From a virus: a stretch of DNA of 64,000 bases. Of this stretch, positions 41,479 to 59,624 are shown in pieces (the first letter of the stretch is position 1; every line of letters starts with the position of its first letter). Made by a program: the position numbers and the translations under genes. The DNA lies in IMG/VR virus record IMGVR_UViG_3300028840_006907, positions 96,001 to 160,000 of that record, one strand, 5' to 3'. The notes under the pieces are model-generated. The model searched no databases and had not been told where the DNA came from. It saw only the letters and a list, made by a program, of their open reading frames with translations.

Positions 41479-41481
41479 GAT

Positions 41482-42612: not shown

Positions 42613-42915
42613 TTAAATATTTTGATTTATGATTTTGCCTTTATATTCCTTAAGCATCTCATCCATATTGGTGATCCGAATTTTTTTATTGAACTGCTTT
42701 GCCATTCCCCTGGGACTTTTTAAAATTAGTCCAGTATCATCTAATTCGAAATATTCCCATTCCCGACGTTGATATCCAAGAGATTTAACAATACGCATAC
42801 CGTAACCTCCCCCTTCATTTTTATGTACTGCATTAGATTGACAGCCCATAACATTGTAACTGGCTAAATATTTTAGGAGGGGAAATTCCTCATATTTGAT
42901 TTCTTTGACTTTCAT
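42613..42915 (-). CDS. hypothetical protein
   Basis: 100 aa ORF. Confidence 0.4.
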   Translation of the reverse strand: MKVKEIKYEEFPLLKYLASYNVMGCQSNAVHKNEGGGYGMRIVKSLGYQRREWEYFELDDTGLILKSPRGMAKQFNKKIRITNMDEMLKEYKGKIINQNI

Positions 42916-44089: not shown

Positions 44090-45297
44090 GGTTTTTTACA
44101 GAAATGATAAAGTTTACGTTTTTCTGGAAAAGATTTACCTATCCGGGATTCTCCTAATAACTTATAATAATTAAATCCGACATCTCTGAAAATAGTTACA
44201 ACATCTCCGTCCGAGTCATGAGGCTCAAGAAATACATGTCGAAAAAGTGATAAATATTTAAGTAGTCTCTTTTTCTTTTTAATCCATCGTAAAAAACTGA
44301 AACAAAAAACTACGTCATAATCATATCCAAGGATGTTTTCATATTCTGAATTATCAAGATCTATTTGAATAATTCTCATCTTATCAGTAGGAATTCGAAA
44401 AGCATTTTTTACTATCTGTGTAGCTTGTAGATGAACCGAATTAAAATCAATTGCAGTAGCTGAATCTATCCCACAATATTTGAAGAGATAGGCAGGGACA
44501 AGTCCCATACAGGTACCTAGATCAAGTACTTTGAGCCCTTCCCAGCAAATTTCATTTTTAAATTTAGTCCATCTTAAATTCCAATTTCTTTCCCCTTCAT
44601 AATACTTCCCATTTATGGTAACGTTATAATAGGGTTTAAAATTCATACCACCCGTGGAATAAGACCAGGCTTTTTCTATAAGAGGAATATCGATTCCAGA
44701 ACGTTCGATAGTAATTGTTTCATTATATAAATTCTTTAGAAATTCATAATAGTCAACTGGGATGCATTGTAAGTGGTATAAAGGGATCTTTATAAAATCT
44801 CTGATATTTGCTATTGATTCAAGATCGATTATACCGTATTCATATCCATTATCAGTTACATTTGATTGGACTAAGTCATAAAAGAAGAACCCAGTTTTTC
44901 GGGCATTTTCGGTTAAAGTTTTAAAGAATCGTTTATACTTGTCGTTCTGTTTATTTACATTTTCAAAAGTACTAAATTCATGCTTATTTTTATACCGTTG
45001 AATATCCCCGTATAGTTTACCATCTATTTCCTTCATGGGACAAGAGACATATCCCATGCTGTACCCTATACAAGAGCCGTTATCAGAAAGAATAACTTCT
45101 TTGATGTCAGCAAGACCATTATAAAATCCTGCATTTACAGCTTGTAGAAATAGACTTCCTATATGTCGTTCCCAAAGGACATAGTCTTCTTTCCAAAGTT
45201 TGTAATATGTTTTATTTAAAGGGTCGTAAAATAATCTGTTTTCTTTTACAATTTCTAGTGCACAGAAGTCAATAGTATCTATATATGTAAATTTCAT
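44086..45297 (-). CDS. SAM-dependent methyltransferase-like protein
   Basis: 403 aa; motif I VLDLGTCMG, DYDVVFCFSFL. Confidence 0.5.
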   Translation of the reverse strand: MKFTYIDTIDFCALEIVKENRLFYDPLNKTYYKLWKEDYVLWERHIGSLFLQAVNAGFYNGLADIKEVILSDNGSCIGYSMGYVSCPMKEIDGKLYGDIQRYKNKHEFSTFENVNKQNDKYKRFFKTLTENARKTGFFFYDLVQSNVTDNGYEYGIIDLESIANIRDFIKIPLYHLQCIPVDYYEFLKNLYNETITIERSGIDIPLIEKAWSYSTGGMNFKPYYNVTINGKYYEGERNWNLRWTKFKNEICWEGLKVLDLGTCMGLVPAYLFKYCGIDSATAIDFNSVHLQATQIVKNAFRIPTDKMRIIQIDLDNSEYENILGYDYDVVFCFSFLRWIKKKKRLLKYLSLFRHVFLEPHDSDGDVVTIFRDVGFNYYKLLGESRIGKSFPEKRKLYHFCKKP

Positions 45298-45306
45298 TAA
45301 TTCTCC

Positions 45307-45804
45307 TTAATCTGATATAAGAATAAATTCACTTTCATGAACATTAAATTTGTCAGGATCCCATGTTGATACGATAATTTGGATTAATTCATTGGCTTTG
45401 TTTTTTGTCGCATCAATTCCTTGAAGACCGCATTTTACATTATTTTTAATATTACTAGCACCTGAAATTGTGACCATATCATCATTTTTGGAAATTGTAT
45501 TTAAGATACGGCCCATTGTATCCATGGAAAGAAGTTGTACATCTTTAAAGATAAAACGAAATAGAGAATATTTTTTTTCTTCGTAATGTCTTTTCTGTAT
45601 ATCAGGCCAACAAATATTATGGAATTTTTTAATTTCTTTTTTAATACTGTTTATGTCTTCAATCACTTCTTTCCATTCATTAGAGATGGTATAATTAGGG
45701 ATAGAAATTTCATGAGCCGTTTCAATTCCGGCTTCAATTAGTAAAGTCGTTCTTAATATTCTTGTTTTCTGATAATATTCGAGATAATTTTTTATTTGAC
45801 CCAT
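45307..45804 (-). CDS. hypothetical protein
   Basis: 165 aa ORF. Confidence 0.45.
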   Translation of the reverse strand: MGQIKNYLEYYQKTRILRTTLLIEAGIETAHEISIPNYTISNEWKEVIEDINSIKKEIKKFHNICWPDIQKRHYEEKKYSLFRFIFKDVQLLSMDTMGRILNTISKNDDMVTISGASNIKNNVKCGLQGIDATKNKANELIQIIVSTWDPDKFNVHESEFILISD

Positions 45805-46084
45805 TTTTTATTTCCTCTTCTTTTTTCTTAATATCAAATGAAATCATCCCTATTATATAAATTATAAAAGTTGCAGTAAAAATTATAATAGGAGGTAAGA
45901 TTTTAAACCCTAACCATAGGATAATACTGACAACATAAATAATAATAATAATAATCCATGTAATAATGAATCTGTTAGGTGGCTCATAAAAACATTTCAA
46001 TTCTTCATAAGTACTATTTTTCATATGGTAATTTTTTCTCCCACTGCTTTCCACAAATTTTACATTCCATAGTGACTTTACCAT
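45734..46084 (-). CDS. small membrane protein
   Basis: 116 aa; two hydrophobic helices. Confidence 0.35.
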   Translation of the reverse strand: MVKSLWNVKFVESSGRKNYHMKNSTYEELKCFYEPPNRFIITWIIIIIIYVVSIILWLGFKILPPIIIFTATFIIYIIGMISFDIKKKEEEIKNGSNKKLSRILSENKNIKNDFTN

Positions 46085-46382
46085 CTCTTTTGCTATTCGG
46101 GATTTCTCTACTTTCAGTATGTATCCAACGTATATCTTCAGAATCCCTGTCTTGTGTATAAGGGTAATCAGGTGTACATTTTTCTATAGTCTTTTTTAAC
46201 TTTTTCAGTCTTTCTCTAATTTTTTCTTGCCTCTTTCCGAATTCTGGGTCACATTTTTCCATGTGCTCACTCCAGTGGCCCCGTTTTATTCTTTTATGGC
46301 ATATTTGACAAGTAAAACAACATGCAATAGTGTGTTTGATGCTTTTATTGTCATGGCATTTACAGTGGCATTCTTCAGTCAA
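46014..46382 (-). CDS. Cys/His-rich zinc-binding protein
   Basis: 122 aa; CHCKCH, CCFTCQICH. Confidence 0.4.
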   Translation of the reverse strand: MTEECHCKCHDNKSIKHTIACCFTCQICHKRIKRGHWSEHMEKCDPEFGKRQEKIRERLKKLKKTIEKCTPDYPYTQDRDSEDIRWIHTESREIPNSKRDGKVTMECKICGKQWEKKLPYEK

Positions 46383-46401
46383 TTTTATATCTCCCCTTTA
46401 A

Positions 46402-47571
46402 TTATCCAAAATTAGACTTTCGGGTCAGAGGTATCTTTTTTGCAGTATCCGCAAATAGTTTTAACCCTTTCCATGAATCAATGTGGTAGGAAGTAATATA
46501 AGGTGCCTTAGGAGGTGGGCAACCACAATGCCCGTTAACTCTAACTGATCTTTTACCCTCTTTATTGGCATACATCTCCTTAGCATCTTTTAAAGGCATA
46601 TTCCCATCGACCATCCAGTAAGTCCATGCTCTTTCAAAGGTGAAACCCGGGAGTTCTCCAGAGATAGAGAAAGGAACTTCTCCGTCACCTTTTTTAGATA
46701 CAATATCAATACCGGCTAGATCAAGTTCAAGTCTGATGTAATGATCACAAGCTACCTCTCCAGCAAGATTCCCCATTGTATAACTTTCTCCATTATTGGC
46801 TAGATGCGTTTCGCATTTCTTTTTGATTTTTTTCTGATAACATTCTTCGTGGAAATATTTCCATTTTTCATAAAGAACTTCATCATTTTCTTCAATGACA
46901 TAATTTTCATCTATATTTTTTCTGCCATTTTTGTTTTTCTCATAACCATATTCTTTATCAATAGTCAGGTCAATGAGCCCCCTATTGAAAATAGTATGAT
47001 GAAATATATAGACAGTATTTTTGTCTGTGTTTCGAAGCTCTTTTTCAATTTCTGTTAAAGTTTTCCCGACGTATTTGGAGTTTATCTCAAATTGGTTAGA
47101 GTACCGTAATCTTTTGGTTTTATGGCAATACTCTACTTCCCATCCTTTATTACAGTGGGAACATTTTACATAAGCGGGAGGTAAATCATTGCCCATTGAG
47201 AATGAGATACTTATAGGATACGGCCTTTTGTTTTTTGCCCAATCAAAATCTTCTGCATCCATCTCTTCTCGGGTTAATATATTAGGGATATTTTCTTTAC
47301 TCCATCTTTCAATAAAATCCCAAAATTCTGTCTTTGTAAAAACTTTTCCTACAGGAAAATTGAAAATTTTCTCTACCGGAATAAAACCTGTCGCAGTACC
47401 TAAATTACCACACGTATCGAGATAATATCGACCTAAGACATAATATTCGTATAGTCTTTCATCACGTTTGTAACCTGCTTCGTGTCTTTCATTGATCATT
47501 TCCCAAAATGTGTTGTAAGATTTAAGTGACTTTTCGATTCCTTTAATTGTGTTATAGTCTTGTTTTTTCAT
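46402..47571 (-). CDS. hypothetical protein
   Basis: 389 aa ORF, no motif recognised. Confidence 0.5.
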   Translation of the reverse strand: MKKQDYNTIKGIEKSLKSYNTFWEMINERHEAGYKRDERLYEYYVLGRYYLDTCGNLGTATGFIPVEKIFNFPVGKVFTKTEFWDFIERWSKENIPNILTREEMDAEDFDWAKNKRPYPISISFSMGNDLPPAYVKCSHCNKGWEVEYCHKTKRLRYSNQFEINSKYVGKTLTEIEKELRNTDKNTVYIFHHTIFNRGLIDLTIDKEYGYEKNKNGRKNIDENYVIEENDEVLYEKWKYFHEECYQKKIKKKCETHLANNGESYTMGNLAGEVACDHYIRLELDLAGIDIVSKKGDGEVPFSISGELPGFTFERAWTYWMVDGNMPLKDAKEMYANKEGKRSVRVNGHCGCPPPKAPYITSYHIDSWKGLKLFADTAKKIPLTRKSNFG

Positions 47572-48599
47572 TTTACCACATGTTTAGAAGTGATTGTTTC
47601 TGCGAATTCTGGCCCCCTATCATAGTCATCAATCCATATGTTATCACAGTGCCGATTTCCTTTTTTCTCACTGCCGTACCATTGTGTCCTCCAATGTGCC
47701 TCAACTCTTATCTTATGATCCAGTTTCCATTTTCCGACACCTCCAGCTTGTTTGATACGAGTTATATCGTTATTCTTATCCTTTATATTTGAACCAACAA
47801 TAATAAATCTTTTGTTGGTAGCTTTTTCTTTCCTTTGTTCCAGTTTTCTTTTCTTGGTTTTATTTTTAATATTTTTTAATCTTGCATCAAAATCTAGTGG
47901 ATCATGGTTTTTTAAATCAGGTTTTTTGCTTGTGATATATAAAAGAGTGTTAAATACAAATTTTGCGAATTCTTCTAAATGATCAACATTTTTATATAAA
48001 TCATATTTATCTACTTCTTCCTTTTTTCTTTTTGTCTCATTTTCAATATAAATCTTTAATTGATCCTGAATTTTTCCAGGTTGCATTTCTATGTGGAAAT
48101 AAAAGGTGGTATCATTAAATGGTATGTCTGGTGTAGGTTTTAATAATGAACATGCCATTACTCTAATATGCTTTTCAGTATTGAAATCTCGAAGATAAAC
48201 GTAAAAACCATTTACAGGATGTTTACTTCCATCTATATCATTTATAGAAAAAAGACCTGGATCTATCTGTATAAAAATTTCTCTAAACGGGGATCTTAAG
48301 AAATAAGCATCAGTATTACAATTTGTTTGGGCTAGTCTTGCTGAAAGTTCTGGTGTTATATAGTATATCTGATCAGCATTATTTTTCATTTGATACATAT
48401 GAAAATATGTATTGTAAAAATGACTTATTCTTGCTGGTGAATCAAATTCAGTAAAAATAGAAGAAGTAGCATTACAAAATTGTTTGAATGTAGGATCAAA
48501 ACCAATATCGAGCATATTTTGTACTAGTATAGTTGGGGCTACTGTCTCTAGATGTTTAATAGCCAGTTCATAATGAGTTTTTGTGAAATACTTCTCCAT
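47568..48599 (-). CDS. hypothetical protein
   Basis: 343 aa ORF. Confidence 0.5.
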   Translation of the reverse strand: MEKYFTKTHYELAIKHLETVAPTILVQNMLDIGFDPTFKQFCNATSSIFTEFDSPARISHFYNTYFHMYQMKNNADQIYYITPELSARLAQTNCNTDAYFLRSPFREIFIQIDPGLFSINDIDGSKHPVNGFYVYLRDFNTEKHIRVMACSLLKPTPDIPFNDTTFYFHIEMQPGKIQDQLKIYIENETKRKKEEVDKYDLYKNVDHLEEFAKFVFNTLLYITSKKPDLKNHDPLDFDARLKNIKNKTKKRKLEQRKEKATNKRFIIVGSNIKDKNNDITRIKQAGGVGKWKLDHKIRVEAHWRTQWYGSEKKGNRHCDNIWIDDYDRGPEFAETITSKHVVK

Positions 48600-48763
48600 A
48601 ATAATTATACAAAGTTTATAAGGTGTTTCAATAAGAAAAAAATGATTTAATTTCTATTTAATCGTTTAATCAGCGATTATCTATTAATATAATTACCGTA
48701 TATAGAAAGTAATGTACTATAAAAATAAAGTGAAATACCATAAAAGCAAACAGAAATGATAAA

Positions 48764-49390
48764 ATGATTGAGACACTTTTTTATTTTTGCTATTATTCTT
48801 ATTTACTAGGTGACTTAAAAAGTACTGAGATGTACTATTCTCTATTGAGAAAAGAATTCAAAGAACATGGCCGAAAAGATTCATTAGAATCTCACCAATA
48901 CCGAGAATTGAAAAAAGTTAAAGATGCTCTTGATTCTGGAACCATATCCAAGAAGGAATGGGTAGCTGATAAAGTTATTGTACCCAAGATTAATTCAGAG
49001 ATAAAAATAAAACAAGATGAATTGGTCCGGAAGATCCATATGGAGGGGCTAGAACAGCTTAAAGTTATCTTGGATGATTGTGTGCAGATATATAATATTG
49101 AGCATCCTTGTGGCTCCTACGGGGCTGTAGATATGGTTTATAAAGGATTGAATACGATCTATCCGGTGGAAGTGAAACGAAGTCGGGGAGAACATGATTT
49201 AATTGGACAAATAGGAAAGTATGATTTATATCATCGTTTAAGGCTCCATTACAAACATTATAAACATGTTCAACCGGTAACGATATGTCATTCTTATCAG
49301 AAATTTGCTTTAAATGAGTTAAGACAAATGAGGGTTTTGACCTTAATTTATACCATAATTAATAAGAAAATTACTCTAAATGTAATATAA
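48764..49390 (+). CDS. hypothetical protein, possible PD-(D/E)xK nuclease fold
   Basis: 208 aa; AVDMVY...IYPVEVKRS resembles D...E.K motif. Confidence 0.4.
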   Translation: MIETLFYFCYYSYLLGDLKSTEMYYSLLRKEFKEHGRKDSLESHQYRELKKVKDALDSGTISKKEWVADKVIVPKINSEIKIKQDELVRKIHMEGLEQLKVILDDCVQIYNIEHPCGSYGAVDMVYKGLNTIYPVEVKRSRGEHDLIGQIGKYDLYHRLRLHYKHYKHVQPVTICHSYQKFALNELRQMRVLTLIYTIINKKITLNVI

Positions 49391-49402
49391 ATTACTTTTC
49401 TA

Positions 49403-49431
49403 TTGACTTTAAGATCATTTAGGGGTATATT
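49403..49431 (+). promoter_or_regulatory. sigma70-like promoter TTGACT-N17-TATATT
   Basis: Near-consensus -35/-10. Confidence 0.5.
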
Positions 49432-49487
49432 TAAATTAAATTACCTTTTGTTAGAAAACGATAATTTCTAAAGAGTGTGTCAAAGAA

Positions 49488-49565
49488 ATGCTGAGAATGA
49501 CTTTTAATAGTAACCCAAATCCACAACCAAAGAATTTGCTATTCGTTGGGGTTGTTATGATATAG
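49488..49565 (+). CDS. micro-ORF (25 aa) with NPNPQP motif
   Basis: MLRMTFNSNPNPQPKNLLFVGVVMI between promoter and terminator. Confidence 0.35.
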   Translation: MLRMTFNSNPNPQPKNLLFVGVVMI

Positions 49566-49592
49566 TCATAATCTCTACCTTGGATCAGGAAA

Positions 49593-49628
49593 AGCCCCGG
49601 CAAATGAGAGTTCTCCGGGGCTTTTCTT
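49593..49628 (+). terminator. rho-independent terminator / conserved hairpin (copy 1)
   Basis: GCCCCGG-caaatgagagttct-CCGGGGC then TTTT. Confidence 0.6.
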
Positions 49629-49646
49629 ATTTAATAATGTACTAAT

Positions 49647-49979
49647 ATGAAATTCGGTTCTATCACAGGTTTTTATAAGGGAAGGATAGAACTTATGAAT
49701 AAAGTATCTTGGGATGAGTATAATAGTATGGTAAATTCAGCAATTGATAGTGGGTATCCTTATGCTAGTGGTATTTTAATAGCTGAATTAGAATCCATAG
49801 CTAAGAATCTAACTCATCAAAATAAAAAGATAGAGGAAACATTAGTAAAAGAAGATAAGGATAAATTGGAAATTAGATTGGAATCAGTAAAGTCATGGAA
49901 TAAAGATACTATTGAGGGTATCGAAAGAGCTATTAAAAAAGCTGATGAAGCAGTAAAAAAATTAAGTGTTGACATTTAA
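49647..49979 (+). CDS. hypothetical protein
   Basis: 110 aa ORF. Confidence 0.45.
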   Translation: MKFGSITGFYKGRIELMNKVSWDEYNSMVNSAIDSGYPYASGILIAELESIAKNLTHQNKKIEETLVKEDKDKLEIRLESVKSWNKDTIEGIERAIKKADEAVKKLSVDI

Positions 49980-49997
49980 TACAATTTGTGGTATCTT
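49969..49997 (+). promoter_or_regulatory. possible promoter TTGACA-N17-TATCTT
   Basis: Consensus -35, weak -10. Confidence 0.35.
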
Positions 49998-50035
49998 TAA
50001 ATTTACATAGTTTTTATTATAAGGAAAGTTTTAAA

Positions 50036-50110
50036 ATGTTGTTTACAAAAATACTCAATAATAACCCGCAACCTAATCAACCAACGAATATTTATTTGTC
50101 GGGGGCCTGA
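50036..50110 (+). CDS. micro-ORF (24 aa) with NNNPQPNQP motif
   Basis: MLFTKILNNNPQPNQPTNIYLSGA; RBS AAGGAAAG. Confidence 0.35.
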   Translation: MLFTKILNNNPQPNQPTNIYLSGA

Positions 50111-50141
50111 GTATTGTCCAAAAGTTAAACTGAAATCACAA

Positions 50142-50178
50142 CCCCCGGCGAATGAGAGTTCACCGGGGGTTTTTATTT
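50142..50178 (+). terminator. rho-independent terminator / conserved hairpin (copy 2)
   Basis: CCCCCGG-cgaatgagagttca-CCGGGGG then TTTTTATTTTT. Confidence 0.6.
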
Positions 50179-50179
50179 T

Positions 50180-50255
50180 TGGGATGTCGCCTAACGGTAT
50201 GGCACCTGACTCTGGCTCAGGAATAATCAGGGTTCAAGTCCTTGCATCCCAGCCA
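50180..50255 (+). tRNA. tRNA-Gln (anticodon CTG)
   Basis: U1:A72 acceptor TGGGATG/CATCCCA, loop CTCTGGC, CCA. Confidence 0.8.
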
Positions 50256-50279
50256 ATTAACTTTAGGAAACAACAATAA

Positions 50280-50353
50280 CGGGGTGTGGCCTAGTCTGGT
50301 AAGGCGTCTGCTTCGGGAGTAGAAAATCGGAGGTTCAAATCCTCTCATCCCGA
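50280..50353 (+). tRNA. tRNA-Pro (anticodon CGG)
   Basis: C1:G72 acceptor CGGGGTG/CATCCCG, loop TTCGGGA. Confidence 0.8.
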
Positions 50354-50371
50354 TTAATAAAGGTAAAAATT

Positions 50372-50926
50372 ATGAGACCCATGATATATCCTAAAAAGAA
50401 TAGGAAAATAAAAAGACCACGAAGATCGAGACCATTAAAAAGATGTGTTCATATTGATGGAAAAGAATGGAGGTGGGAAACAACAGGTCACTGGGATAGT
50501 GATGCAGGTAGTTATGGTTGTTTAACTGATCAGAGCGTTAAAATACTTTCTCCTGATAATAAATTTTTTTCTATACGTGCTCATGAAGTAATGAAATGTG
50601 AACCGATAAGATGGGAATGTTGTGTTGGTGAAAAATTAATAACAGTTTTACCGGGGAAAGTAAAACAGTATATAATAGATAATTTAATTGATCATGATAT
50701 TTCAAGATCGTTAAGGAGACGCATTCATATAGATGGTAGAGAATGGGGTTGGCAGTTTAGTAAAGGAAATCCTGCATATCAGCTCTGTGGAGTATCTGTC
50801 CGTTCTCCTGATAATCGGTATTTATGGATTTATGCAAAAGAGTTAGGATACGAGATTAAACCATCAGTAATTAAAAAGTATATAATTGATAATTTATTAT
50901 ATCGGGGTATAGCGCAGCCTGGTTAG
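50372..50926 (+). CDS. hypothetical protein with internal duplicated ~75-aa module
   Basis: 184 aa; repeats HIDG(K/R)EW(R/G)W...SPDN(K/R)...YIIDNL; 3' end overlaps tRNA-Pro. Confidence 0.45.
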   Translation: MRPMIYPKKNRKIKRPRRSRPLKRCVHIDGKEWRWETTGHWDSDAGSYGCLTDQSVKILSPDNKFFSIRAHEVMKCEPIRWECCVGEKLITVLPGKVKQYIIDNLIDHDISRSLRRRIHIDGREWGWQFSKGNPAYQLCGVSVRSPDNRYLWIYAKELGYEIKPSVIKKYIIDNLLYRGIAQPG

Positions 50927-50979
50927 CGCGTCTGAATGGGGTTCAGAAGGTCGCCAGTTCAACTCTGGCTACCCCGACC
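50902..50979 (+). tRNA. tRNA-Pro (anticodon GGG)
   Basis: C1:G72 acceptor CGGGGTA/TACCCCG, loop ATGGGGT, CCA. Confidence 0.8.
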
Positions 50980-50998
50980 AAAGTTCTTTGAAAATTAT

Positions 50999-51274
50999 GG
51001 GGGTGTGGCAGAAGGGATATGCAGTCCTCAAAAAGTAGACAGGTCTGGGTAAAACCGGGTCATTACAGGAAGTTTGTATTCGCTACTGAAACGAAACAAA
51101 GGGAAGGTAGTGTAACGCTTACGGACTGGTGCTTGCAAGGGTTTACGGAAGACACTGACACGTTGCCTGGGATCTGGAGACAGCCCAGGAGGGTTTGTAA
51201 ATAACGGCAGGAAGTCCTTTTTCCCAATAGTGAGCTTTGGATGACTTATGCCGGTTCGAATCCGGTCACCTCCA
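50999..51274 (+). other. tRNA-like ends (acceptor GGGGGTG/CACCTCC, T-arm GCCGGTTCGAATCCGGT) enclosing ~200-nt GC-rich insert; unresolved structured RNA or intron-containing tRNA
   Basis: Acceptor complementarity and canonical T-arm at 3' end; no normal anticodon arm found by hand; GC content far above surroundings. Confidence 0.4.
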
Positions 51275-51360
51275 TCAAAATAAATTAAATAGATAGATAG
51301 GCAAACTGGCAAGCCATTTGGTTGTAATAGAAAATGTGTAGCAAGATCATAAAGACATAC

Positions 51361-51632
51361 TGGAGTGTAGCTCAGTGGCAGAGCGGGTGGCTGTCTTGGT
51401 TGGCAGCTCTTATAGGAAACTGTAAGATGAAAACTCGGTGAATTCAGGGAAACCTAAGTCTTAAACAGATATGGCAATCCTGAGCGAAGCCTTGAGAAAG
51501 GAACGTGCAGAGACTTATAGCGCCGAGCACCTAAGGTGAAAACTATGGTGATGAGATAGTCCAGGCCCTTGGGAAATCAGGGGAATTACTGTAACCACTT
51601 GGTCGGGGGTTCAAATCCCTCCACTCCAGCCA
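51361..51632 (+). tRNA. tRNA-Asn (anticodon GTT) interrupted by a group I intron
   Basis: Exon 1 51361-51394 (TGGAGTG...GGTGG-CTGT), exon 2 51592-51632 (TAA-CCACT...CACTCCAGCCA); spliced loop CTGTTAA; U1:A72 as in bacterial tRNA-Asn. Confidence 0.7.
51395..51591 (+). ncRNA. group I intron (~197 nt) in tRNA-Asn anticodon loop
   Basis: 5' exon ends in U; IGS GGCAG pairs with exon CUGU; R-like GCAGAGACTTATAGCG and S-like GAGATAGTCC elements; terminal G before exon 2. Confidence 0.65.
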
Positions 51633-51683
51633 ATTTTAAAGGGTCCTAGAGGAATTTACTTTAAAGAAAAGGAGAAAAATTAA

Positions 51684-51884
51684 ATGAGTAAAGATGAGAA
51701 ACCTGATTATTCGAAAGATTTCGATACATGTCCTTGGTGTAATAAAATACCAAAAGTATCGAAACATTTCAGATATGATGAATGGCAACTGATCCATCGT
51801 TGTGATAAATTACTTACTGTAATTAGTATGGATTGGACTGAATTAGATAGTCTTAAAAATCGATGGAATCGACCTAAGAAATGA
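51684..51884 (+). CDS. hypothetical protein
   Basis: 66 aa ORF; CPWCNK. Confidence 0.4.
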   Translation: MSKDEKPDYSKDFDTCPWCNKIPKVSKHFRYDEWQLIHRCDKLLTVISMDWTELDSLKNRWNRPKK

Positions 51885-52156
51885 CAGAATGTACTATATG
51901 TGAAAGAGAAACTCCTGAGAAATATGTGGAGAAACATCACTTGACTCCTTGTAGCCGAGGAGGAAAGGATAAGGAGAAAACACTTACTTGTATTGATTGC
52001 GGAGATCAGGTACATCGATTATTTACGAATAAAGAATTGGAGAGAGACTATTATACACTCGAAAAATTATTAGCTCATCCTAAAATCCAGAAATGGAAGA
52101 AATGGGTTAAGAATAAGAGATTCGGGATATGTATGAAACGAAAAAAGAAGAGATAA
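51881..52156 (+). CDS. small HNH-type endonuclease-like protein
   Basis: 91 aa; CTICE...EKHHLTPCSRGG...CIDCGDQVH. Confidence 0.5.
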   Translation: MTECTICERETPEKYVEKHHLTPCSRGGKDKEKTLTCIDCGDQVHRLFTNKELERDYYTLEKLLAHPKIQKWKKWVKNKRFGICMKRKKKR

Positions 52157-52163
52157 TATATAA

Positions 52164-52239
52164 CGGGCGGTCGCCTAATCTGGTATGGCACCACATTTGG
52201 GATGTGGAATAACTGGAAGTTCAAATCTTCTCCGCCCGA
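52164..52239 (+). tRNA. tRNA-Pro (anticodon TGG)
   Basis: C1:G72 acceptor CGGGCGG/CCGCCCG, loop TTTGGGA. Confidence 0.8.
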
Positions 52240-52253
52240 TATATTTTTAAATC

Positions 52254-52329
52254 AATAAGTTACTGGGATGTAGTTCAGTTGAAAGAACACCGGAATTTGG
52301 ATCCGGGGGTCGCAGGTTTGAGCCCTGCC
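52254..52329 (+). tRNA. tRNA-Gln (anticodon TTG)
   Basis: U1:A72 acceptor TGGGATG/CATCCCA, loop ATTTGGA, CCA. Confidence 0.8.
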
Positions 52330-52537
52330 ATCCCAGCCATTTAATTTTTTTATCAATATATTTACCACAAAGACGTATATTATTTATACAACTTAAAAAT
52401 AGGAATAATATATGACATAGATAAAAATACCACCCTAGATCCTCAAAATATTCAAACCTCCTTAAAACACGGTTATTATACCAAATGGTGTTATACCAAA
52501 CAGTACAATATTCATTCATTTAAACAGGAGAATAACC

Positions 52538-52837
52538 GTGATCAAAAATAGAAAATTTTTAAAATTTGAATTAAAATTAGAAGCTCAAAAATTACGAAAA
52601 ATCAAGACTGATATTAAAACCAAGCAGAGAGCTGGCCAGTATGCCGGTCATGAACAGTCCGAATTATTGACTCTTAAATGGAATTACCGCCATCGATTTA
52701 TTGCTTATTGTATGATGCGGGGTAGAGAATATAAGCAAATCGAAAGAACATGTAGAGTTGAACCAAATCATGACTGGGTAAAGGAGATCATCAATGAATA
52801 CTCCCCGCAAAAAGAAACTATACGTGCTTCTGCGTAA
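52538..52837 (+). CDS. hypothetical protein
   Basis: 99 aa ORF. Confidence 0.4.
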   Translation: MIKNRKFLKFELKLEAQKLRKIKTDIKTKQRAGQYAGHEQSELLTLKWNYRHRFIAYCMMRGREYKQIERTCRVEPNHDWVKEIINEYSPQKETIRASA

Positions 52838-53108
52838 AGATTTGGATGAAACTTATCGATGTGTTCAAGGAGGCCATGCTATTGCTGAGTATTCTCTAAA
52901 GGATTACCAGTCATTTAAAGAATGGGCAAATGGAACTCTGATTTATCTTGGAGTACCTGATTTAAAAGCTTTGGAATTATGGTTGCTCAAATTGGAACGG
53001 AAAAATATTTTTCATATCAGGTTTCATGAACCCGATCTTGGGAATGAGTTAACATCGGTAGCTTGTATAAATACAGGGAAAATTTTTAAAAGTCTTCCTC
53101 TTGCTTAA
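52794..53108 (+). CDS. possible PTH2-like peptidyl-tRNA hydrolase
   Basis: 104 aa; KLYVLLRKDLDE...GGHAIAEY weakly resembles PTH2 family. Confidence 0.35.
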   Translation: MNTPRKKKLYVLLRKDLDETYRCVQGGHAIAEYSLKDYQSFKEWANGTLIYLGVPDLKALELWLLKLERKNIFHIRFHEPDLGNELTSVACINTGKIFKSLPLA

Positions 53109-53115
53109 AGTTACA

Positions 53116-53189
53116 GCGCCTGAGGCTCTGAGGTGAGCAACTTGGACTCTAAATCCAAGTTTTTCAGGGTTCGACTCCCTACAGGCGCA
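53116..53189 (+). tRNA. suppressor tRNA (anticodon CTA, reads UAG)
   Basis: Hand fold: acceptor GCGCCTG/CAGGCGC, anticodon stem TTGGA/TCCAA, loop CTCTAAA (U33, CUA, A37), T-loop TTCGACT. Confidence 0.65.
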
Positions 53190-53287
53190 TTATAACTATA
53201 ATCTTTCCAACATTTTAAATTTTTAGTTATCACAATCATCTCTCAATCTTGTATAATATATAAGGGAAAAATTTAAGGAGATATAAA

Positions 53288-54022
53288 GTGATAATAATTT
53301 CTAAATTCCATGATTATTACGATAGTGGAATGACATATGGTATTGATAAAGAATTGAGGTTTATAAGAAAAACTGAAAAAATAGATAAACAATTGGAGAT
53401 ACCTGAAAAGATTACTGAATTAATGAAAGATTTGCCTAAGGTTTATGATTATTATAGAAGTCAACAATTTACAGCTCAACCTTTTATAATAATTTTCTGT
53501 GGTCAGGTTCATCTGGGGTATCATTTTTTTAATTTGAAAGATCCTAAGGATAAGAACTATTATGTGCGTCATACAGATCCAGATATCTATACATATGATT
53601 TGCCTTCAGTAGAAAAAGTGATTCAGAAATACGAACCGGAGATGTTCAAAACGTTTCGTAATAAAGATACACTCTTTCACCGTATCCTACCTTCATTCAA
53701 ATATGACGTTCTGGAAAGAGCATTCAAAAAATTCGAAGACAAGAAAATGGATGTCGGGATTCATCTGGATGAAGAATCCCCGATCCTATATCTTGGATAT
53801 GATGACAGAGATTTTATTTACATAAAGAATCCTGTTCTTCGGAAACTTCAATTTTTTAAAAAGGTTAATTCATTTACAGCTTTCCAGAATATCTCAATGT
53901 TTATAGGAGGAATTTGTAGCAAGACTTTCCCTCCCACCGTGGAACTCAGTGAAAAAGACAGAATCGGAAAACAAGGATTTGACAAGTGGTCTTTCAGAAA
54001 GAAGGGGGAAAATTCAAAATGA
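53288..54022 (+). CDS. hypothetical protein
   Basis: 244 aa ORF. Confidence 0.5.
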   Translation: MIIISKFHDYYDSGMTYGIDKELRFIRKTEKIDKQLEIPEKITELMKDLPKVYDYYRSQQFTAQPFIIIFCGQVHLGYHFFNLKDPKDKNYYVRHTDPDIYTYDLPSVEKVIQKYEPEMFKTFRNKDTLFHRILPSFKYDVLERAFKKFEDKKMDVGIHLDEESPILYLGYDDRDFIYIKNPVLRKLQFFKKVNSFTAFQNISMFIGGICSKTFPPTVELSEKDRIGKQGFDKWSFRKKGENSK

Positions 54023-54290
54023 ATTTATTAGTAGCAGTAACAGGAGGATTCAATTTGTTTCATTGAAAATGCTATGGAACATTGTAGTGTAGAAGATCGT
54101 AAGAATGTTTATTATAATAATGCAGATAAAATATTGGATGGGGTTTATTTAGATAGATAAAGAAGAGTTTTAAATACATATATTTGAAATTGAAATACCC
54201 ATATTCGAAATTCATGAATCTTGAATATGGGTATTTTAATTATTTATTGATATTTCCATTAATTATAAACCTTAACTAGGAAGATGTATT

Positions 54291-54563
54291 ATGGCCGATA
54301 AAAAAACCGAAAAGAAGAAGTTTAATTGTGAGGTATTATTAGCACTTGATGAGAAGATAGGCCGAGGCAATATAGTCAGGTTACAAGTAGTGCGTTGGAA
54401 TAATTATTCCCCGGTTCTGGAAAAACGGGAGTATTACCAGAAGGATGATGAAGAAAGAACTGGGAAAGCCAAAGGTTTTAATCATGAAGATTTTGAAATG
54501 ATCCTAGAAAATGCAGATAAAATTCAGAAACTCCTTGAAAAGGAGTTTAAAGATAAAAAATAA
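54291..54563 (+). CDS. hypothetical protein
   Basis: 90 aa ORF. Confidence 0.4.
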   Translation: MADKKTEKKKFNCEVLLALDEKIGRGNIVRLQVVRWNNYSPVLEKREYYQKDDEERTGKAKGFNHEDFEMILENADKIQKLLEKEFKDKK

Positions 54564-54580
54564 AATAAAGGTTAGTTTAT

Positions 54581-54763
54581 ATGAGTATCGAGATTGTCGT
54601 AGCTGAATTAACACAAGGACTCAAAACTTTTCAATCAATCCATGGAGTTGATGACGAAGCAATGGTTGATGTTCTTACAGAGTGTGCCGAAATGTATAAA
54701 CGTAAAAAATTAGCAAAGGAAATGATGAAAAATAAAGATATAGTGACTGAACCTATTACTTAG
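54581..54763 (+). CDS. hypothetical protein
   Basis: 60 aa ORF. Confidence 0.35.
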   Translation: MSIEIVVAELTQGLKTFQSIHGVDDEAMVDVLTECAEMYKRKKLAKEMMKNKDIVTEPIT

Positions 54764-55454
54764 ATTTCTTTTCTTTATATTTGCTAAAGAGACCCATAAA
54801 AAGCGTCCAGAGTAATTTCAAGGCGTTATTCCTGACGTATTTTATTATTAATTCAATACCTTTCTTTTCGATATATAATTCAAATTCCTTTTCAAAAGTT
54901 TCTGTTCTATCCTTTATTGATTTTTTCCATACTTCAACCATTTCATTCAGATTGGTTTTACGTTCTTCAATCTCTTCTCGAATAGAATCTATTACCTCTT
55001 CTTTTTTATTACCTATTTCACTCAACAGGTCACTTAAATTTTTATCAATATCATTTTTGACATTCTTTAAAGCATCCTCTAGGAAACCTTGACCTTCATC
55101 CAATATCTTTCTGAGATTGTTATAGACTTCTCCCAATTCCCCTGTCTTGGTATCAGTTTTTCCCAAGAATTCCTTAACATTCTGGAGCTTTTCATCCATA
55201 TTACCAAGGTTGAGCTTTTCCATTGATTTTCTAATTTTTTCTGCTTTATCTTCTTGAATAGCCATATATTCTGCTAAATAATCTACTATTTTGTTTATTT
55301 TAAGTTTTGATTCAGAAAAATCAGGTTTTAGTTTTTCAACTTCCTCTTGTAATTCTTCTAAAAACATTTCACGGATTTTCTGAAGGGCTCCTTCCATTGC
55401 CCCACCGTTTGATGAGACACTGTTAAGTAGGTTCTTAAATTTCTTTTTATTCAT
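54756..55454 (-). CDS. coiled-coil protein
   Basis: 232 aa; E/K/L-rich heptad-like sequence. Confidence 0.5.
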   Translation of the reverse strand: MNKKKFKNLLNSVSSNGGAMEGALQKIREMFLEELQEEVEKLKPDFSESKLKINKIVDYLAEYMAIQEDKAEKIRKSMEKLNLGNMDEKLQNVKEFLGKTDTKTGELGEVYNNLRKILDEGQGFLEDALKNVKNDIDKNLSDLLSEIGNKKEEVIDSIREEIEERKTNLNEMVEVWKKSIKDRTETFEKEFELYIEKKGIELIIKYVRNNALKLLWTLFMGLFSKYKEKKSK

Positions 55455-55726
55455 GATTTCCTTTCTATTATTGTTATTTTTCTTACTTTGAGTTTCGGTC
55501 CTGGTACAACTTTGGCTGGTATTGGTATTTGTTCATGATACCATTCTATAAATCTTTCATCGTTTATATCAAAAATAAGCCCATCAGAGATAACAATATC
55601 AGGTTTATTTGATTTACTATCTGAAGTACCAATATGGACAGGATGGGTATATTCTTTTTCTGATGTTTGAACTTTTTCAGTTACCCAATAATATCCGTTT
55701 TTTTCAGGAGCTTTCTTTGTCCACAT
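55451..55726 (-). CDS. hypothetical protein
   Basis: 91 aa ORF, overlap-coupled in minus-strand gene block. Confidence 0.4.
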   Translation of the reverse strand: MWTKKAPEKNGYYWVTEKVQTSEKEYTHPVHIGTSDSKSNKPDIVISDGLIFDINDERFIEWYHEQIPIPAKVVPGPKLKVRKITIIERKS

Positions 55727-56029
55727 TTATAATATTTCTTTCACTTTGTTTTTTAATGTATCACATTTAGGATCAAATTCTGGCTCTTTTCCATCGTTCC
55801 ATGGTGACTTAATCCAGAAAAAGCATGAGTCAACACGACCCACTCTGATGTCTCCATTCATGTAATCCCTTTGTCCTTTAAAATAAGCCCTCTCAATGGC
55901 TTTAAAGTCGGTAGTGGCCTCTATACTAATGTATTGTATTTTATTGCTCTCAGGGGCAAATAACCGCCATGAGATAAGGAATAGTAAGTAAGCTCCTATT
56001 AAAATTATAAAACTATTAATTTTAAACAT
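55727..56029 (-). CDS. membrane-anchored hypothetical protein
   Basis: 100 aa; N-terminal hydrophobic helix. Confidence 0.4.
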   Translation of the reverse strand: MFKINSFIILIGAYLLFLISWRLFAPESNKIQYISIEATTDFKAIERAYFKGQRDYMNGDIRVGRVDSCFFWIKSPWNDGKEPEFDPKCDTLKNKVKEIL

Positions 56030-56897
56030 ATAAATTGTTCTCTTGTATAATACCAGCTATTAATGTGAGAAAAGGAGACTCCCTAAGATACTTTTCCCGA
56101 TCCTCCTTTAATTCTTTTCTGATATCTGTAGAGGATATCTTTGGTATTTTATTACCAGCATCAAAAAACTTATGTGGTTCTTTCATATACCAATTCACAT
56201 TTGGATCGCGCTTTTCTCCTTGTCTAGATACTACAATGAATGGTATCAATTTTTCAAGGTGTTCATAGTTAACCCATTTATCAAATGTATTGGCATTATC
56301 AAGTCCAATGACATAATTGAATCGGTATTCGTTTTTGGCAAAATCCTCTTCCATAAATTTATTAAGGAAATAATATGTCTCTCCAGCTAGTTCGTGAACA
56401 ATTTCATAATCGCATACTTTCATTCTCTTATCTACCTGTACATATTCTCGACACATGGCTAGCCGTAGTGATGCAGGAGCCATTTCTTTTCCATATAAAT
56501 GTCTGTAGCAGGGGATGTACCAAACTTCATCGAATAACCCTGCTTCATCGAGTAAGAATTTTCCTATAGCAAGATGGCCAGGATGGATGGGATCAAAAGC
56601 ACCCCCGATGAGCGCAACTGATACTTTCCTGCCAAGTTTACGGTATAAAGATCGGCTATTAATTTTGGTGATGTTCATTTCAACCAATTCATTAAAATCA
56701 TAACCGGCTTCATTAATCCATTGTATCAGTGTACCAAGTAGATCGCTCGTTTCATCTTTTAATCCCGTCATGGTCCTGGCTCTTGTCAATTCAAATGCTT
56801 CTTTAAGGATATCATTCAATCTGATATCAGTAGGAGTATTTCCAAAAGCTTCTGAATACGTTTTATTGATATTATTTAATAAATCTGATAAATTCAT
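56022..56897 (-). CDS. nadD: nicotinate-nucleotide adenylyltransferase (NadD/NMNAT-like) with N-terminal MazG-like extension
   Basis: 291 aa; GGAFDPIHPGHL (HxGH nucleotidyltransferase) and ISSTDIR; N-terminal ~90 aa EAFELTRARTMTGLKDETSDLLGTLIQWINEAG resembles MazG/HisE-type NTP-PPase. Confidence 0.75.
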   Translation of the reverse strand: MNLSDLLNNINKTYSEAFGNTPTDIRLNDILKEAFELTRARTMTGLKDETSDLLGTLIQWINEAGYDFNELVEMNITKINSRSLYRKLGRKVSVALIGGAFDPIHPGHLAIGKFLLDEAGLFDEVWYIPCYRHLYGKEMAPASLRLAMCREYVQVDKRMKVCDYEIVHELAGETYYFLNKFMEEDFAKNEYRFNYVIGLDNANTFDKWVNYEHLEKLIPFIVVSRQGEKRDPNVNWYMKEPHKFFDAGNKIPKISSTDIRKELKEDREKYLRESPFLTLIAGIIQENNLYV

Positions 56898-57078
56898 TTT
56901 TCAATTTCTTTTTAGGTAAATTTTTTATTATACAATCAATACAAATATCTTTACTTTTCCACTGCCCATTTTCTATAGTTCTTAATACCACCCTATAACT
57001 TTTATCTCTAATAAAGAGCCTGCTATCGTCAATATCCATTTGTTTTTTGCATATATCACATATTGTAATTTTAGCCAT
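56872..57078 (-). CDS. small zinc-ribbon protein
   Basis: 68 aa; CDICKK...CIDCI. Confidence 0.4.
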   Translation of the reverse strand: MAKITICDICKKQMDIDDSRLFIRDKSYRVVLRTIENGQWKSKDICIDCIIKNLPKKKLKNEFIRFIK

Positions 57079-57095
57079 TTTGTTTTAAATTACAT

Positions 57096-57887
57096 TTATA
57101 TATCTAAATGGCAAATACGAGGCATTTCCATTTTATGAGCATTCTTTTCATGTCGTTCTAGATATAATTCAAGAACTTTCATTTTTCTTTTTTCTATTGT
57201 TAACATAGATTTCATCGCTTCAAGTCCTTTGATAGTTTTTAAACCACCTAATTTTTTACAAAAATCCATAGCCCATTCCAATTCAGAATATGTAGCTCCA
57301 ATCTGATCTTCATCAGTTCTGCCATCTTCCCATAATCCATCAGTAGGTTTTGCTGTTAAAATATCTGAGTTCACTCCAAGATAGGCTCCCATACCATATA
57401 CCTCAGATTTGACTAGCTCTCCTATTGGACTTATATCAACACCACCATCACCGAATTTTGTAAAGAAACCAATTCCGAAATCTTCAACCATATTCCCAGT
57501 ACCAACAACATAATAATTATGGGTATTTGCGATAGCATAAAGAGCTACCATTCGAAGACGGGATCTGGTATTAACCATGGCAAATTCATTGTAATAATTA
57601 CTATGATTAAAATTATTAAAGACAACTGAAAGATCTTCCGTATGACTGGTAACATTGGTATAGTCTTTTTTTAATTTTTCAACATGTGCTTCTGCTCTGG
57701 GAAGAATATCTTGATTTATTGGCATATGGGCACATATAACAGGTTTATAAGTTCTGGCACATAAATTTGATACAACTGCTGAGTCAATTCCACCTGAAAC
57801 TCCAACTACACAGCCATCTACATGGGATTCCTTCATGTCTCTAATAATCCAATTTACAATATGATCTGAGACTTTTTTATAGTCCAA
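57096..57887 (-). CDS. nadE: NAD+ synthetase (NH3-dependent type)
   Basis: 263 aa; PP-loop GVSGGIDSAV. Confidence 0.8.
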   Translation of the reverse strand: MDYKKVSDHIVNWIIRDMKESHVDGCVVGVSGGIDSAVVSNLCARTYKPVICAHMPINQDILPRAEAHVEKLKKDYTNVTSHTEDLSVVFNNFNHSNYYNEFAMVNTRSRLRMVALYAIANTHNYYVVGTGNMVEDFGIGFFTKFGDGGVDISPIGELVKSEVYGMGAYLGVNSDILTAKPTDGLWEDGRTDEDQIGATYSELEWAMDFCKKLGGLKTIKGLEAMKSMLTIEKRKMKVLELYLERHEKNAHKMEMPRICHLDI

Positions 57888-57899
57888 ATTTATCCTCCT

Positions 57900-59624
57900 T
57901 TAATTCATGGCAATTGAGTATATTTTTTTATTGTCAACAAATAACACTTTCATATGTTCATGGTATAATCGCATAGATACATTAATCGGTGTATTCGTAA
58001 TATCCTTACTTCCTTTATTATTTTTAAATAGAGACATTTTATCATTATCGACAGAGATGCACATTCCAGTAGGTAATGTAATAAAATTAACTGGATGGTA
58101 ATCAATCATATCTTCCTGTTTAATATCATAGCTAGTATGGGTTTTATCAAAACAAATTGTATATTTAAAATAACTTCCCTGTTTTTCTGTGACCACTATA
58201 CAGATTCCTTTATCATACCGGGCATCAATGATTCTTTGGCCGTCCAATTCTTTTACATAAGTATTAATACATTTCCCTCTTTCGAAAGGAATAGCTAATC
58301 GTATCTTTGTGAAATCATCCTGTACAATAACACCTCGGAAAGACTTATATGATTTGCTTATTCTACATACAGTTTTAGTCGTATGAATAACTCTCTGGAA
58401 TTTTTCAAAATGATTCTCTATCAATCTTCCATTATTAATGGTGTAAATATACCCATTATACCCCATTATGTCTTCAGCTTTGATGTCGGATATTGATTTA
58501 TTATTTAAATCAAAGAACTCAGCTTTTAAATTCTTGAAATAAACTATTAAGGGATCCGCTCCATAAGCTTCACACATGCCTACTATGGTTGATTTTAAAG
58601 GTTTATGGAACTTAACCACTTTATCTTTATTCTGGTCATATATGGCTTTAGAAGTTATCACAAAGCGTTTATCATTAAAGAAGAAGATATTCCGAATCGG
58701 TTCATTTACTTCGAATACTTTTTCTACTATGAAATCACCTCTACTAGTTATAGTTCTGGCAACTGCTGCTACAACCACGACCTCGTCCGGTAATGGCGGG
58801 ATGGATCTCTCATTATTTTTAAATTCTGATACATACCATTCAAAATGTTTTTTAGGGATCACAGAATAATCTTGGCACATGGCCGGTAATGGCTTTGCTC
58901 CTTTATCAAAATTTGAGACTCCATCATCCATCCTTTTAATCCATTGTTTCGGTTTATAATCGATATGTCTACTTTTGTAAGGGTGAATACCCAGATACAT
59001 TTGATAAGTTACGACACCCCAGGAGAACCAGTCAGAGTACTCAGTAAATTGAGCATTCTTAACCTGTCGATCTCGAACACTATCCATAAGAGCATCTGCT
59101 GGGAAGCTTTTTGTTTTCCAGGCATCCACATCAATGTGATAAACGGTCTTTAAATCACCGCTAAGAAGGAAATTCATCTCATTATAATCAACTACTAGGA
59201 AGCCATTTTTATGGATGTATTGTAGGGCTTTCTGCATTTTAAGAACTAGGTCAGCTATATCTGTTGGACTTAAATGTTTATTGTCTCTGAAAGTCTTAGT
59301 AAATACTTGGCAGAGAAATTCAACTCCATCAACATATCTCATTGTAAACCCAATGGGTGTGTGGTTCCTCACTTCATATAAAGGTTCTATGGGTGACAGG
59401 ATATCATCTCGTTTTAATTCGGTCAATTCGTGTATTTTTGCTTCTGGTATCATATTTTTAGTATCATGATAAATTTTATATGCAATCCCATTTAGATAAA
59501 AAACTGTTCCAAAACCACCAGAAGCTTTATAATTATCATCAGTCAAAGTAACAATTTCTTTTGTTGTCTGAACTTTGAATGACTTCTTTATTATCGGGTT
59601 CATTTTTGTTTTCGGTAAAATCAT
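57900..59624 (-). CDS. protein-kinase-like (Ser/Thr kinase fold) protein with C-terminal extension
   Basis: 574 aa; Gly-rich loop SGGFGTVF, AYKIY Lys, catalytic-loop-like VVDYNEMNFLL, DVDAW. Confidence 0.6.
   Translation of the reverse strand: MILPKTKMNPIIKKSFKVQTTKEIVTLTDDNYKASGGFGTVFYLNGIAYKIYHDTKNMIPEAKIHELTELKRDDILSPIEPLYEVRNHTPIGFTMRYVDGVEFLCQVFTKTFRDNKHLSPTDIADLVLKMQKALQYIHKNGFLVVDYNEMNFLLSGDLKTVYHIDVDAWKTKSFPADALMDSVRDRQVKNAQFTEYSDWFSWGVVTYQMYLGIHPYKSRHIDYKPKQWIKRMDDGVSNFDKGAKPLPAMCQDYSVIPKKHFEWYVSEFKNNERSIPPLPDEVVVVAAVARTITSRGDFIVEKVFEVNEPIRNIFFFNDKRFVITSKAIYDQNKDKVVKFHKPLKSTIVGMCEAYGADPLIVYFKNLKAEFFDLNNKSISDIKAEDIMGYNGYIYTINNGRLIENHFEKFQRVIHTTKTVCRISKSYKSFRGVIVQDDFTKIRLAIPFERGKCINTYVKELDGQRIIDARYDKGICIVVTEKQGSYFKYTICFDKTHTSYDIKQEDMIDYHPVNFITLPTGMCISVDNDKMSLFKNNKGSKDITNTPINVSMRLYHEHMKVLFVDNKKIYSIAMN

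Follow-up and report, generated by a model that had tools for sequence, protein, structure and literature searches.

We analyzed a 64,000-nucleotide (nt) stretch of viral DNA (positions 96,001 to 160,000 of the IMG/VR record IMGVR_UViG_3300028840_006907; hereafter the window), in which positions 51361-51632 on the plus strand hold a tRNA-Asn(GUU) gene with an encoded CCA end, split by a 197-nt group I intron. It is highly probable that this gene, lying in the tRNA array of a huge phage, is divided between anticodon positions U35 and U36 by a compact intron that carries no endonuclease gene. An earlier reading made from the letters alone (the sequence-only reading) had proposed a tRNA-Asn(GUU) interrupted by a small group I intron, and this central claim is upheld here by an Rfam match, by the splice-site rules and by an intron-less allele in a relative.

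The split tRNA-Asn gene and its intron-less counterpart

The 5' exon supplies the 5' acceptor strand UGGAGUG, the D arm (GCUC/GAGC), the 5' strand of the anticodon stem (GGUGG) and the loop bases C32, U33, G34 and U35 (CUGU). The 3' exon opens with U36, A37 and A38 and continues through the 3' anticodon strand, the variable loop, the T arm (GGGGG-UUCAAAU-CCCUC), the acceptor strand CACUCCA, G73 and the encoded CCA. The insertion point therefore reads CUGU/UAA; the intron starts with CUUGGUUGGCAGC and ends with AUUACUG. When the exons were joined by hand, ARAGORN returned a canonical 75-nt tRNA-Asn(gtt) with a U1:A72 pair, the discriminator G73 and the loop CUGUUAA, in agreement with the tRNA that the sequence-only reading had rebuilt. 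The U1:A72 pair and G73 match those of Escherichia coli tRNA-Asn. Run on the window in its default mode, ARAGORN did not report the gene, and in its intron mode (-i) it reported 51361-51632 as tRNA-Thr(tgt), i(33,197), with both boundaries shifted by 2 bases. Neither mode found another tRNA-Asn within the 64-kb window. No open reading frame (ORF) of at least 40 aa occurs inside the intron, and all of its 197 nt are taken up by ribozyme helices. The locus reads base for base the same in a 388,651-bp JGI contig and in a Logan contig, two assembly records that may derive from one sample.

Relatives of the window were found by a protein search with a neighbouring 244-aa ORF (53-69% identity), and in one of these contigs, L059, the tRNA array is syntenic with that of the window: Gln(ctg) and Pro(cgg) precede a small ORF and Asn(gtt), followed by Pro(tgg) and Gln(ttg). 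The tRNA-Asn gene of L059 (3353-3428) has no insert; window exon 1 aligns to 3353-3387 and exon 2 to 3388-3428, with no gap between them. The two genes have the same acceptor stem and the same anticodon arm, GUGGCUGUUAACCAC, and the L059 loop also reads CUGUUAA. This contiguous alignment bears out the boundaries of the exons and the identity of the tRNA as Asn. It also means that one lineage has the intron and a related one lacks it, a presence/absence polymorphism at a conserved tRNA-Asn site that is based on one comparison (window versus L059). Most simply, the intron may be regarded as a selfish passenger that was gained or lost within the phage lineage.

Group I structure and predicted splicing

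The Rfam covariance-model search that had been proposed as a check by the sequence-only reading was strongly positive. RF00028 matched positions 51385-51583 across the full model (positions 1-253) with 92.8 bits (gathering score, 50; E value, 1.5e-22), and this was the only group I match in the window. We assigned P1-P9 manually, starting from the Rfam alignment (Table 1); all of the 57 modelled pairs are canonical, and an unconstrained minimum free energy (MFE) fold (-60.9 kcal/mol) recovers P1-P6, P8 and P9 with minor differences.

The splice sites follow from the same model. The 5' site lies directly after U51394, which is wobble-paired to G51403 within P1; one strand of this helix consists of the exon end GGCUGU and the first intron base, and the other contains the internal guide GGCAG (51402-51406). 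The guide had already been paired with the exon end CUGU in the sequence-only reading, and it proved to be part of a 7-bp P1. The U.G pair is retained in 8 of 12 aligned homologs, and the remaining P1 pairs covary. At the other end, G51591 is the sole intron end that gives a 7-nt loop CUGUUAA identical to that of the intron-less allele, so that the predicted insert of about 197 nt, which was to begin after an exon U and end in G, corresponds to 51395-51591. The ‘R-like’ (51507-22) and ‘S-like’ (51553-62) elements, which the sequence-only reading had picked out as core elements, build P7, in which G51512:C51561 is presumed to be the guanosine-binding pair.

Table 1. Coordinates of the interrupted tRNA-Asn gene, its intron and a neighbouring ORF in the window
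Feature	Position	Strand	Description	Evidence
tRNA-Asn 5' exon	51361..51394	+	34 nt, ends ...GGCUGU	Sequence; ARAGORN on joined exons; alignment to L059 3353-3387
P1 hairpin	51389..51408	+	7 bp, 51389-95 with 51402-08 (GGCAGCU)	Sequence; covariation
Group I intron	51395..51591	+	197 nt	Rfam RF00028; helix model; covariation
L1 loop / P10	51396-51401	+	GGUU 51398-51401 with exon-2 AACC 51593-96, 4 bp	
P2	51409..51426	+	7 bp, GAAA tetraloop 51416-19	Compensatory changes in 7/7 pairs
P3 5' strand	51434..51440	+	Partner 51521-51527	7/7 pairs covary
P4, J4/5, P5/P5a	51444..51483	+	P4, 51444-49 with 51478-83; J4/5 AAA, 51450-52	Helix model; covariation
P5 11-nt tetraloop receptor	51453-58 with 51470-74	+	CCUAAG with UAUGG; also in Azoarcus-type introns	Read from sequence
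P6/P6a	51484..51506	+	GAGA loop (L6a) 51494-97	Helix model; covariation
P7 5' strand	51510..51515	+	G51510, G51512-U51515, bulged A51511; partner 51558-51562; pseudoknot with P3	
P3 3' strand	51521..51527	+		Helix model; covariation
P8	51529..51549	+	Second 11-nt receptor, CCUAAG 51530-35 with UAUGG 51544-48; GAAA loop 51538-41; aligned with P8 of Azoarcus-type introns	
P7 3' strand	51558..51562	+	AGUCC	Covariation alignment
P9	51566..51583	+	7 bp, GAAA tetraloop 51573-76	7/7 pairs covary
Terminal guanosine (omega-G)	51591	+	3' splice site follows	Read from sequence
tRNA-Asn 3' exon	51592..51632	+	41 nt, UAACCAC...GCCA	Sequence; ARAGORN on joined exons; alignment to L059 3388-3428
Free-standing HNH_5 endonuclease ORF	51881..52156	+	91 aa; 250 nt downstream of tRNA-Asn	Pfam HNH_5, 31.1 bits

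To examine covariation, we built a covariance model (R1) from the window intron alone, with which 22 further introns were found in viral or phage loci (n = 23). Standard pairs fill 92.4% of the pair cells; the figure drops to 66% after shuffling and does not exceed 41% with slid partners. Compensatory changes on both sides occur at 44 of the 57 pairs; since the alignment was fitted to the model, these figures lean toward it, although the margin is large nonetheless. Almost no variation is seen in P7, its bulged A or the G-site pair across the 23 introns (96.9% of P7 cells are paired).

The layout is compact, with a single P2, no P5abc, no P7.1/P7.2 and a single P9. Only 5 nt separate P7 from the 3' strand of P3, and 1 nt separates the latter from P8, so that the extra helices of IA introns do not fit; judged by architecture alone, the intron does not have the structure of subgroup IA. 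It is collinear throughout with the Rhodocyclales tRNA(CAU) introns of the Azoarcus type. Given this helix set, the tetraloops and receptors, the tight P7-P3'-P8 spacing and the collinearity, we describe the architecture as Azoarcus-like (IC3-type), a label judged from layout and alignment. The tRNA-Ile(CAU) intron of Azoarcus sp. BH72 (IC3; Reinhold-Hurek and Shub 1992) likewise spans about 200 nt, consists of P1-P9 without extra domains, and combines GAAA tetraloops in L2 and L9 with 11-nt receptors in P5 and P8. However, it is inserted after position 36 of another tRNA, and the window intron has a shorter P6 and a GAAA sequence in L8 as well. The P3-P8 core is about 70% identical between the window intron and its Rhodocyclales relatives. 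By analogy with the Azoarcus intron, the L2 and L9 tetraloops probably dock into the receptors in P8 and P5, and such docking would account for the independent folding of so small an RNA.

The proposed splicing steps are modelled on the established group I pathway. As the precursor folds, the exon end GGCUGU and the internal guide GGCAGC would form P1, with U51394 in its wobble pair with G51403. An external guanosine, held at the P7 site (G51512:C51561, beside the bulged A51511), would then attack after U51394, and the guide GGUU would position exon 2 (AACC) through P10. Next, G51591 would move into the G site, and the free 3'-OH of U35 would attack after G51591, so that the exons would be ligated into a tRNA with the loop CUGUUAA. 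The CCA end is gene-encoded, and 5' maturation would presumably proceed via the host RNase P.

Related introns and neighbouring genes

The sequence-only reading had also noted that group I introns in tRNA anticodon loops are known in bacteria, and had considered one in a phage tRNA-Asn to be noteworthy. The first statement stands, whereas the novelty was overstated, because introns at the 35/36 site of tRNA-Asn are known in Patescibacteria (PMC13011429) and tRNA introns are frequent in viral contigs. The 35/36 site in tRNA-Asn was first listed in 2020 (Williams, bioRxiv 10.1101/2020.01.27.920355), and group I introns at this site have since been described for tRNA-Asn(GUU) and tRNA-Asp(GUC) of Patescibacteria, with in vitro splicing demonstrated for tRNA-Asn (Nakagawa et al. 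2026, PMC13011429). These Patescibacteria introns share with the window intron the tRNA, the site, an exon ending in CUGU within P1 and the ARAGORN miscall as Thr(UGU) at 33/34, and they are likewise mostly small and without an endonuclease gene. However, they are classed in subgroup IA, and some carry HNH genes, whereas the window intron is Azoarcus-like (IC-type) and resides in a phage genome. A Saccharibacteria example (L088) scored only 64 bits with R1.

Introns of phage protein-coding genes (T4 td and nrdB, Twort, and the DNA polymerase genes of Vibrio and Salmonella phages) belong to the same ribozyme class; unlike the window intron, they interrupt mRNAs and are often accompanied by endonuclease genes. 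According to a 2014 review (Hausner et al., PMC3984707), all phage introns then known lay in protein-coding genes, despite the many tRNA genes of phages. In the full-text literature that we searched, there was no later report of group I introns in phage tRNA genes, an absence that is not proof. On these two grounds, the phage setting of tRNA group I introns appears to be undescribed, yet such introns are common, if unannotated, in public data on uncultivated phages.

In IMG/VR, a degenerate P7-P8 pattern matched 24 loci, 19 of which lie inside interrupted tRNA genes, mostly of Leu(taa) and also of Tyr, Ser, Arg and Asn. Neither an exact 27-mer from P7-P8 nor a combined pattern of the Asn-specific guide and the P4/P5 core had a match in IMG/VR, and judged by these patterns, a near relative of the window phage is absent from that collection. 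A megablast search of window positions 40000-60000 against GenBank phages also gave no match; in those genomes, BLAST matched the P3-P7 core alone (about 80% over 90 nt), in introns of protein-coding genes. Among the viral loci, L038 has a 194-nt tRNA-Asn intron inserted one base later, at 36/37 (P1 read by eye). An exact counterpart in position is found in L051 (IMGVR_UViG_3300045988_163932, 196 kb), whose tRNA-Asn (5421-6120) is interrupted at 35/36. Its intron shares with the window intron the site, the P1/P10 logic, the exon ends GGCUGU and UAACC, U1:A72, G73, the encoded CCA and the location on a large viral contig. It differs in its length of 616 nt and in having a homing-endonuclease-type ORF of the PD-(D/E)XK family (PF11645), and its ribozyme part scored only 36 bits with R1. 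The L051 segment is identical at 695 of 700 positions to L094 3355-4054, a part of a 4.6-kb contig binned as a Romboutsia metagenome-assembled genome (MAG), which is probably a mis-binned phage fragment.

Two published huge phages, LR756501.1 (735 kb) and LR756511.1 (595 kb), have a tRNA-Leu(UAA) gene split at 34/35 by group I-like introns of 205 nt (L054, LR756501.1 188787-191959) and 700 nt (L055, LR756511.1 407755-410825), the longer of which encodes an HNH motif. Both have a BLAST match to the core, and L054 scored 68.8 bits with R1, while neither reaches the Rfam gathering score. Their GenBank records carry no annotation. IC3-type tRNA introns at 34/35, a kind also seen in phage contigs and in these two phages, resemble the window intron in being of the self-splicing type and in lying in a tRNA anticodon loop; they differ in the insertion site, and the phage tRNA-Leu examples aligned without the P5 receptor motif.

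In bacterial genomes, the degenerate P7-P8 pattern matched at least 120 loci, and most of the matches listed lie in tRNA genes, in Clostridia, Proteobacteria, Patescibacteria, Chloroflexota and Cyanobacteria. Among those listed, the best R1 matches (99-116 bits, about 70% identity) come from Chloroflexota (L163, 116 bits; L180, 108 bits) and Omnitrophota (L174), and the last is a tRNA-Asn intron at 35/36 with the same P1/P10 logic as in the window. At about 70% identity, even the best listed matches are too distant to name a donor lineage. The host tRNAs of the two Chloroflexota introns (L163 2524-2801 and L180 1524-1802, both in MAGs) are Asn-like (U1:A72, G73), with a 5' exon GGCUC... and a 3' exon UGUAACC, and simple splice rules give a clean junction for neither Asn nor Thr.

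The window contains 37 tRNA genes by intron-aware search, none of them for Ala or Tyr, and a transfer-messenger RNA (tmRNA) gene on the minus strand (15870-16282, 159.9 bits). It also holds many small ORFs of unknown function and has several PHROG matches, and relatives of its ORFs lie in IMG/VR contigs of 100-424 kb. A promoter and terminator scan of positions 50100-52400 gave nothing above chance. The free-standing HNH ORF downstream of tRNA-Asn overlaps the stop of ORF66 and abuts tRNA-Pro(tgg). On the other side of tRNA-Asn, the 184-aa ORF at 50372-50926 (plus strand) is made up of an internally duplicated unit of about 89 aa with the motif R-R-x-H-I-D-G-x-E-W; L059 has a single copy of this unit (3066-3335), placed between its tRNA-Pro(cgg) and tRNA-Asn genes.

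Another tRNA-like gene, likewise interrupted, is located 85 nt upstream of tRNA-Asn (50999-51276, plus strand). Its acceptor stem has 7 bp (G3:U70, A73), its D stem 3 bp, and its T arm is standard, while about 200 nt replace the anticodon arm. ARAGORN describes it as tRNA-Gln with a 207-nt intron, which we found unconvincing; the gene had no Rfam match at E<=1, our own group I model detected nothing in it with filters off, and its MFE z-score is -0.83. Homologs occur at L024 5092-5324 (a 424-kb phage contig) and in L186 (a related 7-kb contig); they have another tRNA-like frame, and the 3' 110 nt of the insert are about 80% identical, with compensatory changes. With a model of this conserved 3' domain, no copies beyond the three known ones turned up among 63 phage loci. 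That the reading frames through the gene are not closed in a consistent way speaks against a tmRNA-like tag. The gene could represent an intervening RNA or a tRNA-like RNA of a new kind.

Several further RNA-related genes were observed. A tRNA with the anticodon CUA (53116-53189, plus strand), of the amber suppressor type and called ‘Pyl’ by ARAGORN, hints that TAG may be sense in part of the genome. At 31069-31175 (plus strand) lies a tRNA-like gene of 104-107 nt (Rfam tRNA, 30.1 bits) with an extra arm of about 35 nt; read by eye, its anticodon arm has a loop of 6 or 8 nt (UUGCAC / UUUGCACA) and not of 7 nt, and ARAGORN gives Cys with an 11-nt intron. L056, a relative of the window phage, encodes an RNA 2'-phosphotransferase (8028-8585; Tpt1/KptA, PF01885), and L184, a huge-phage contig with a homolog of the HNH ORF, encodes an RNA ligase (4714-5382; PF09414). 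Enzymes of both families are part of protein-based tRNA splicing and repair pathways.

Competing explanations and implications

If the ARAGORN intron mode were right, the gene would be a tRNA-Thr(UGU) with an intron at 33/34, since moving both boundaries by 2 nt likewise yields a 7-nt loop (CUUGUAA). In that case, however, the intron would end in C instead of G, and the last exon U would face A instead of G in P1. The uninterrupted ortholog has the Asn loop, and U1:A72 and G73 are tRNA-Asn features, as in E. coli. In addition, a tRNA-Thr(tgt) is already present at 21795-21868 of the window, which has no other tRNA-Asn. The same miscall has been documented and experimentally disproved in Patescibacteria (PMC13011429). 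We therefore rejected the Thr assignment, on the splice-site rules and the intron-less allele, and regard it as extremely improbable. In favour of a decayed, inactive relic within a tRNA-Asn pseudogene that the phage no longer uses, the intron has no homing endonuclease, and phage tRNA arrays do gather odd or degenerate genes, such as those at 31069-31175 and 50999-51276. Against such decay, the intron scores above related viral introns with Rfam (about 60 bits for L031 and L038), its modelled pairs are all canonical, and it retains an intact U.G pair, omega-G, bulged A and G-site pair as well as both sets of tetraloops and receptors. Nor are the exons any less well formed than the intron-less allele, and they represent the only tRNA-Asn of the window. 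We accordingly consider a relic improbable, if somewhat less so than the Thr assignment, and the intron would be catalytically active.

The intron might also be kept for its usefulness, an idea compatible with a functional intron in tRNA-Asn: it could postpone or modulate the provision of phage tRNA-Asn, or hide the anticodon-loop sequence from nucleases directed at it. Phages use tRNAs to escape defences that cleave tRNAs (PMC11555353), many phage contigs have tRNA genes with introns, and regulatory roles have been speculated upon by Nakagawa et al. (PMC13011429). However, the close relative L059 manages without the intron, and the distribution is that expected of a selfish element, so a benefit to the phage seems unlikely. 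Collaborative homing is similarly doubtful. Under this scenario, the HNH enzyme would cut the intron-less tRNA-Asn of co-infecting relatives, and repair would copy the intron and the HNH gene together. Free-standing endonucleases that target intron insertion sites occur in T4-like phages and cyanophages. T4 mobE is a related case (PMC2790892). In agreement with the scenario, intron and HNH ORF occur together in the window, while L059 has neither, despite the presence there of the ORF66 homolog and tRNA-Pro. However, this amounts to one co-occurrence and one co-absence; L056 has the HNH ORF, but its tRNA-Asn region lies off the contig. The HNH homologs in other huge-phage contigs (52-72% identity) are found in unrelated neighbourhoods, one of them (in L183) directly 5' of a tRNA(CUA) gene and none near an intron-bearing tRNA-Asn, and the other phage tRNA-Asn intron at 35/36, that of L051, carries a PD-(D/E)XK enzyme instead. 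For these last two reasons we rejected the HNH ORF as the intron's own endonuclease, and its role in moving the intron is possible but unsupported.

Some points also weigh against our interpretation of a spliced phage tRNA-Asn. Splicing of the precursor is predicted from sequence features, and a second, uninterrupted tRNA-Asn may exist elsewhere in the 389-kb genome, in which case splicing might not be needed. The window contains no capsid, terminase or other structural gene; its phage origin is a well-founded deduction from the PHROG matches, the relatives in IMG/VR and the density of its tRNA array, which comes with a tmRNA. Finally, the pair counts used for covariation are biased toward the structure of the window intron, as described above.

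The window intron brings no new mechanism. Its 197-nt ribozyme, Azoarcus-like and equipped with three GAAA loops and two receptors, nevertheless offers a compact natural variant for folding studies. We also considered a broader proposal, in which the tRNA arrays of huge phages form a large overlooked reservoir of useful intervening RNAs, the tRNA-Asn intron being one case and the gene at 50999-51276 a second that represents a new intron or ribozyme class; at present, there is little reason to favour it. Our quick scans (19 of the 24 IMG/VR matches and the two huge phages) suggest that the view that phage group I introns sit in protein-coding genes alone is out of date. Because ARAGORN in its default mode misses the gene, and in its intron mode misnames it as Thr, the tRNA set of this phage seems to lack Asn under standard annotation. 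Intron-aware searching is called for wherever codon-usage adaptation, host range or genetic code is to be inferred from phage tRNA sets.

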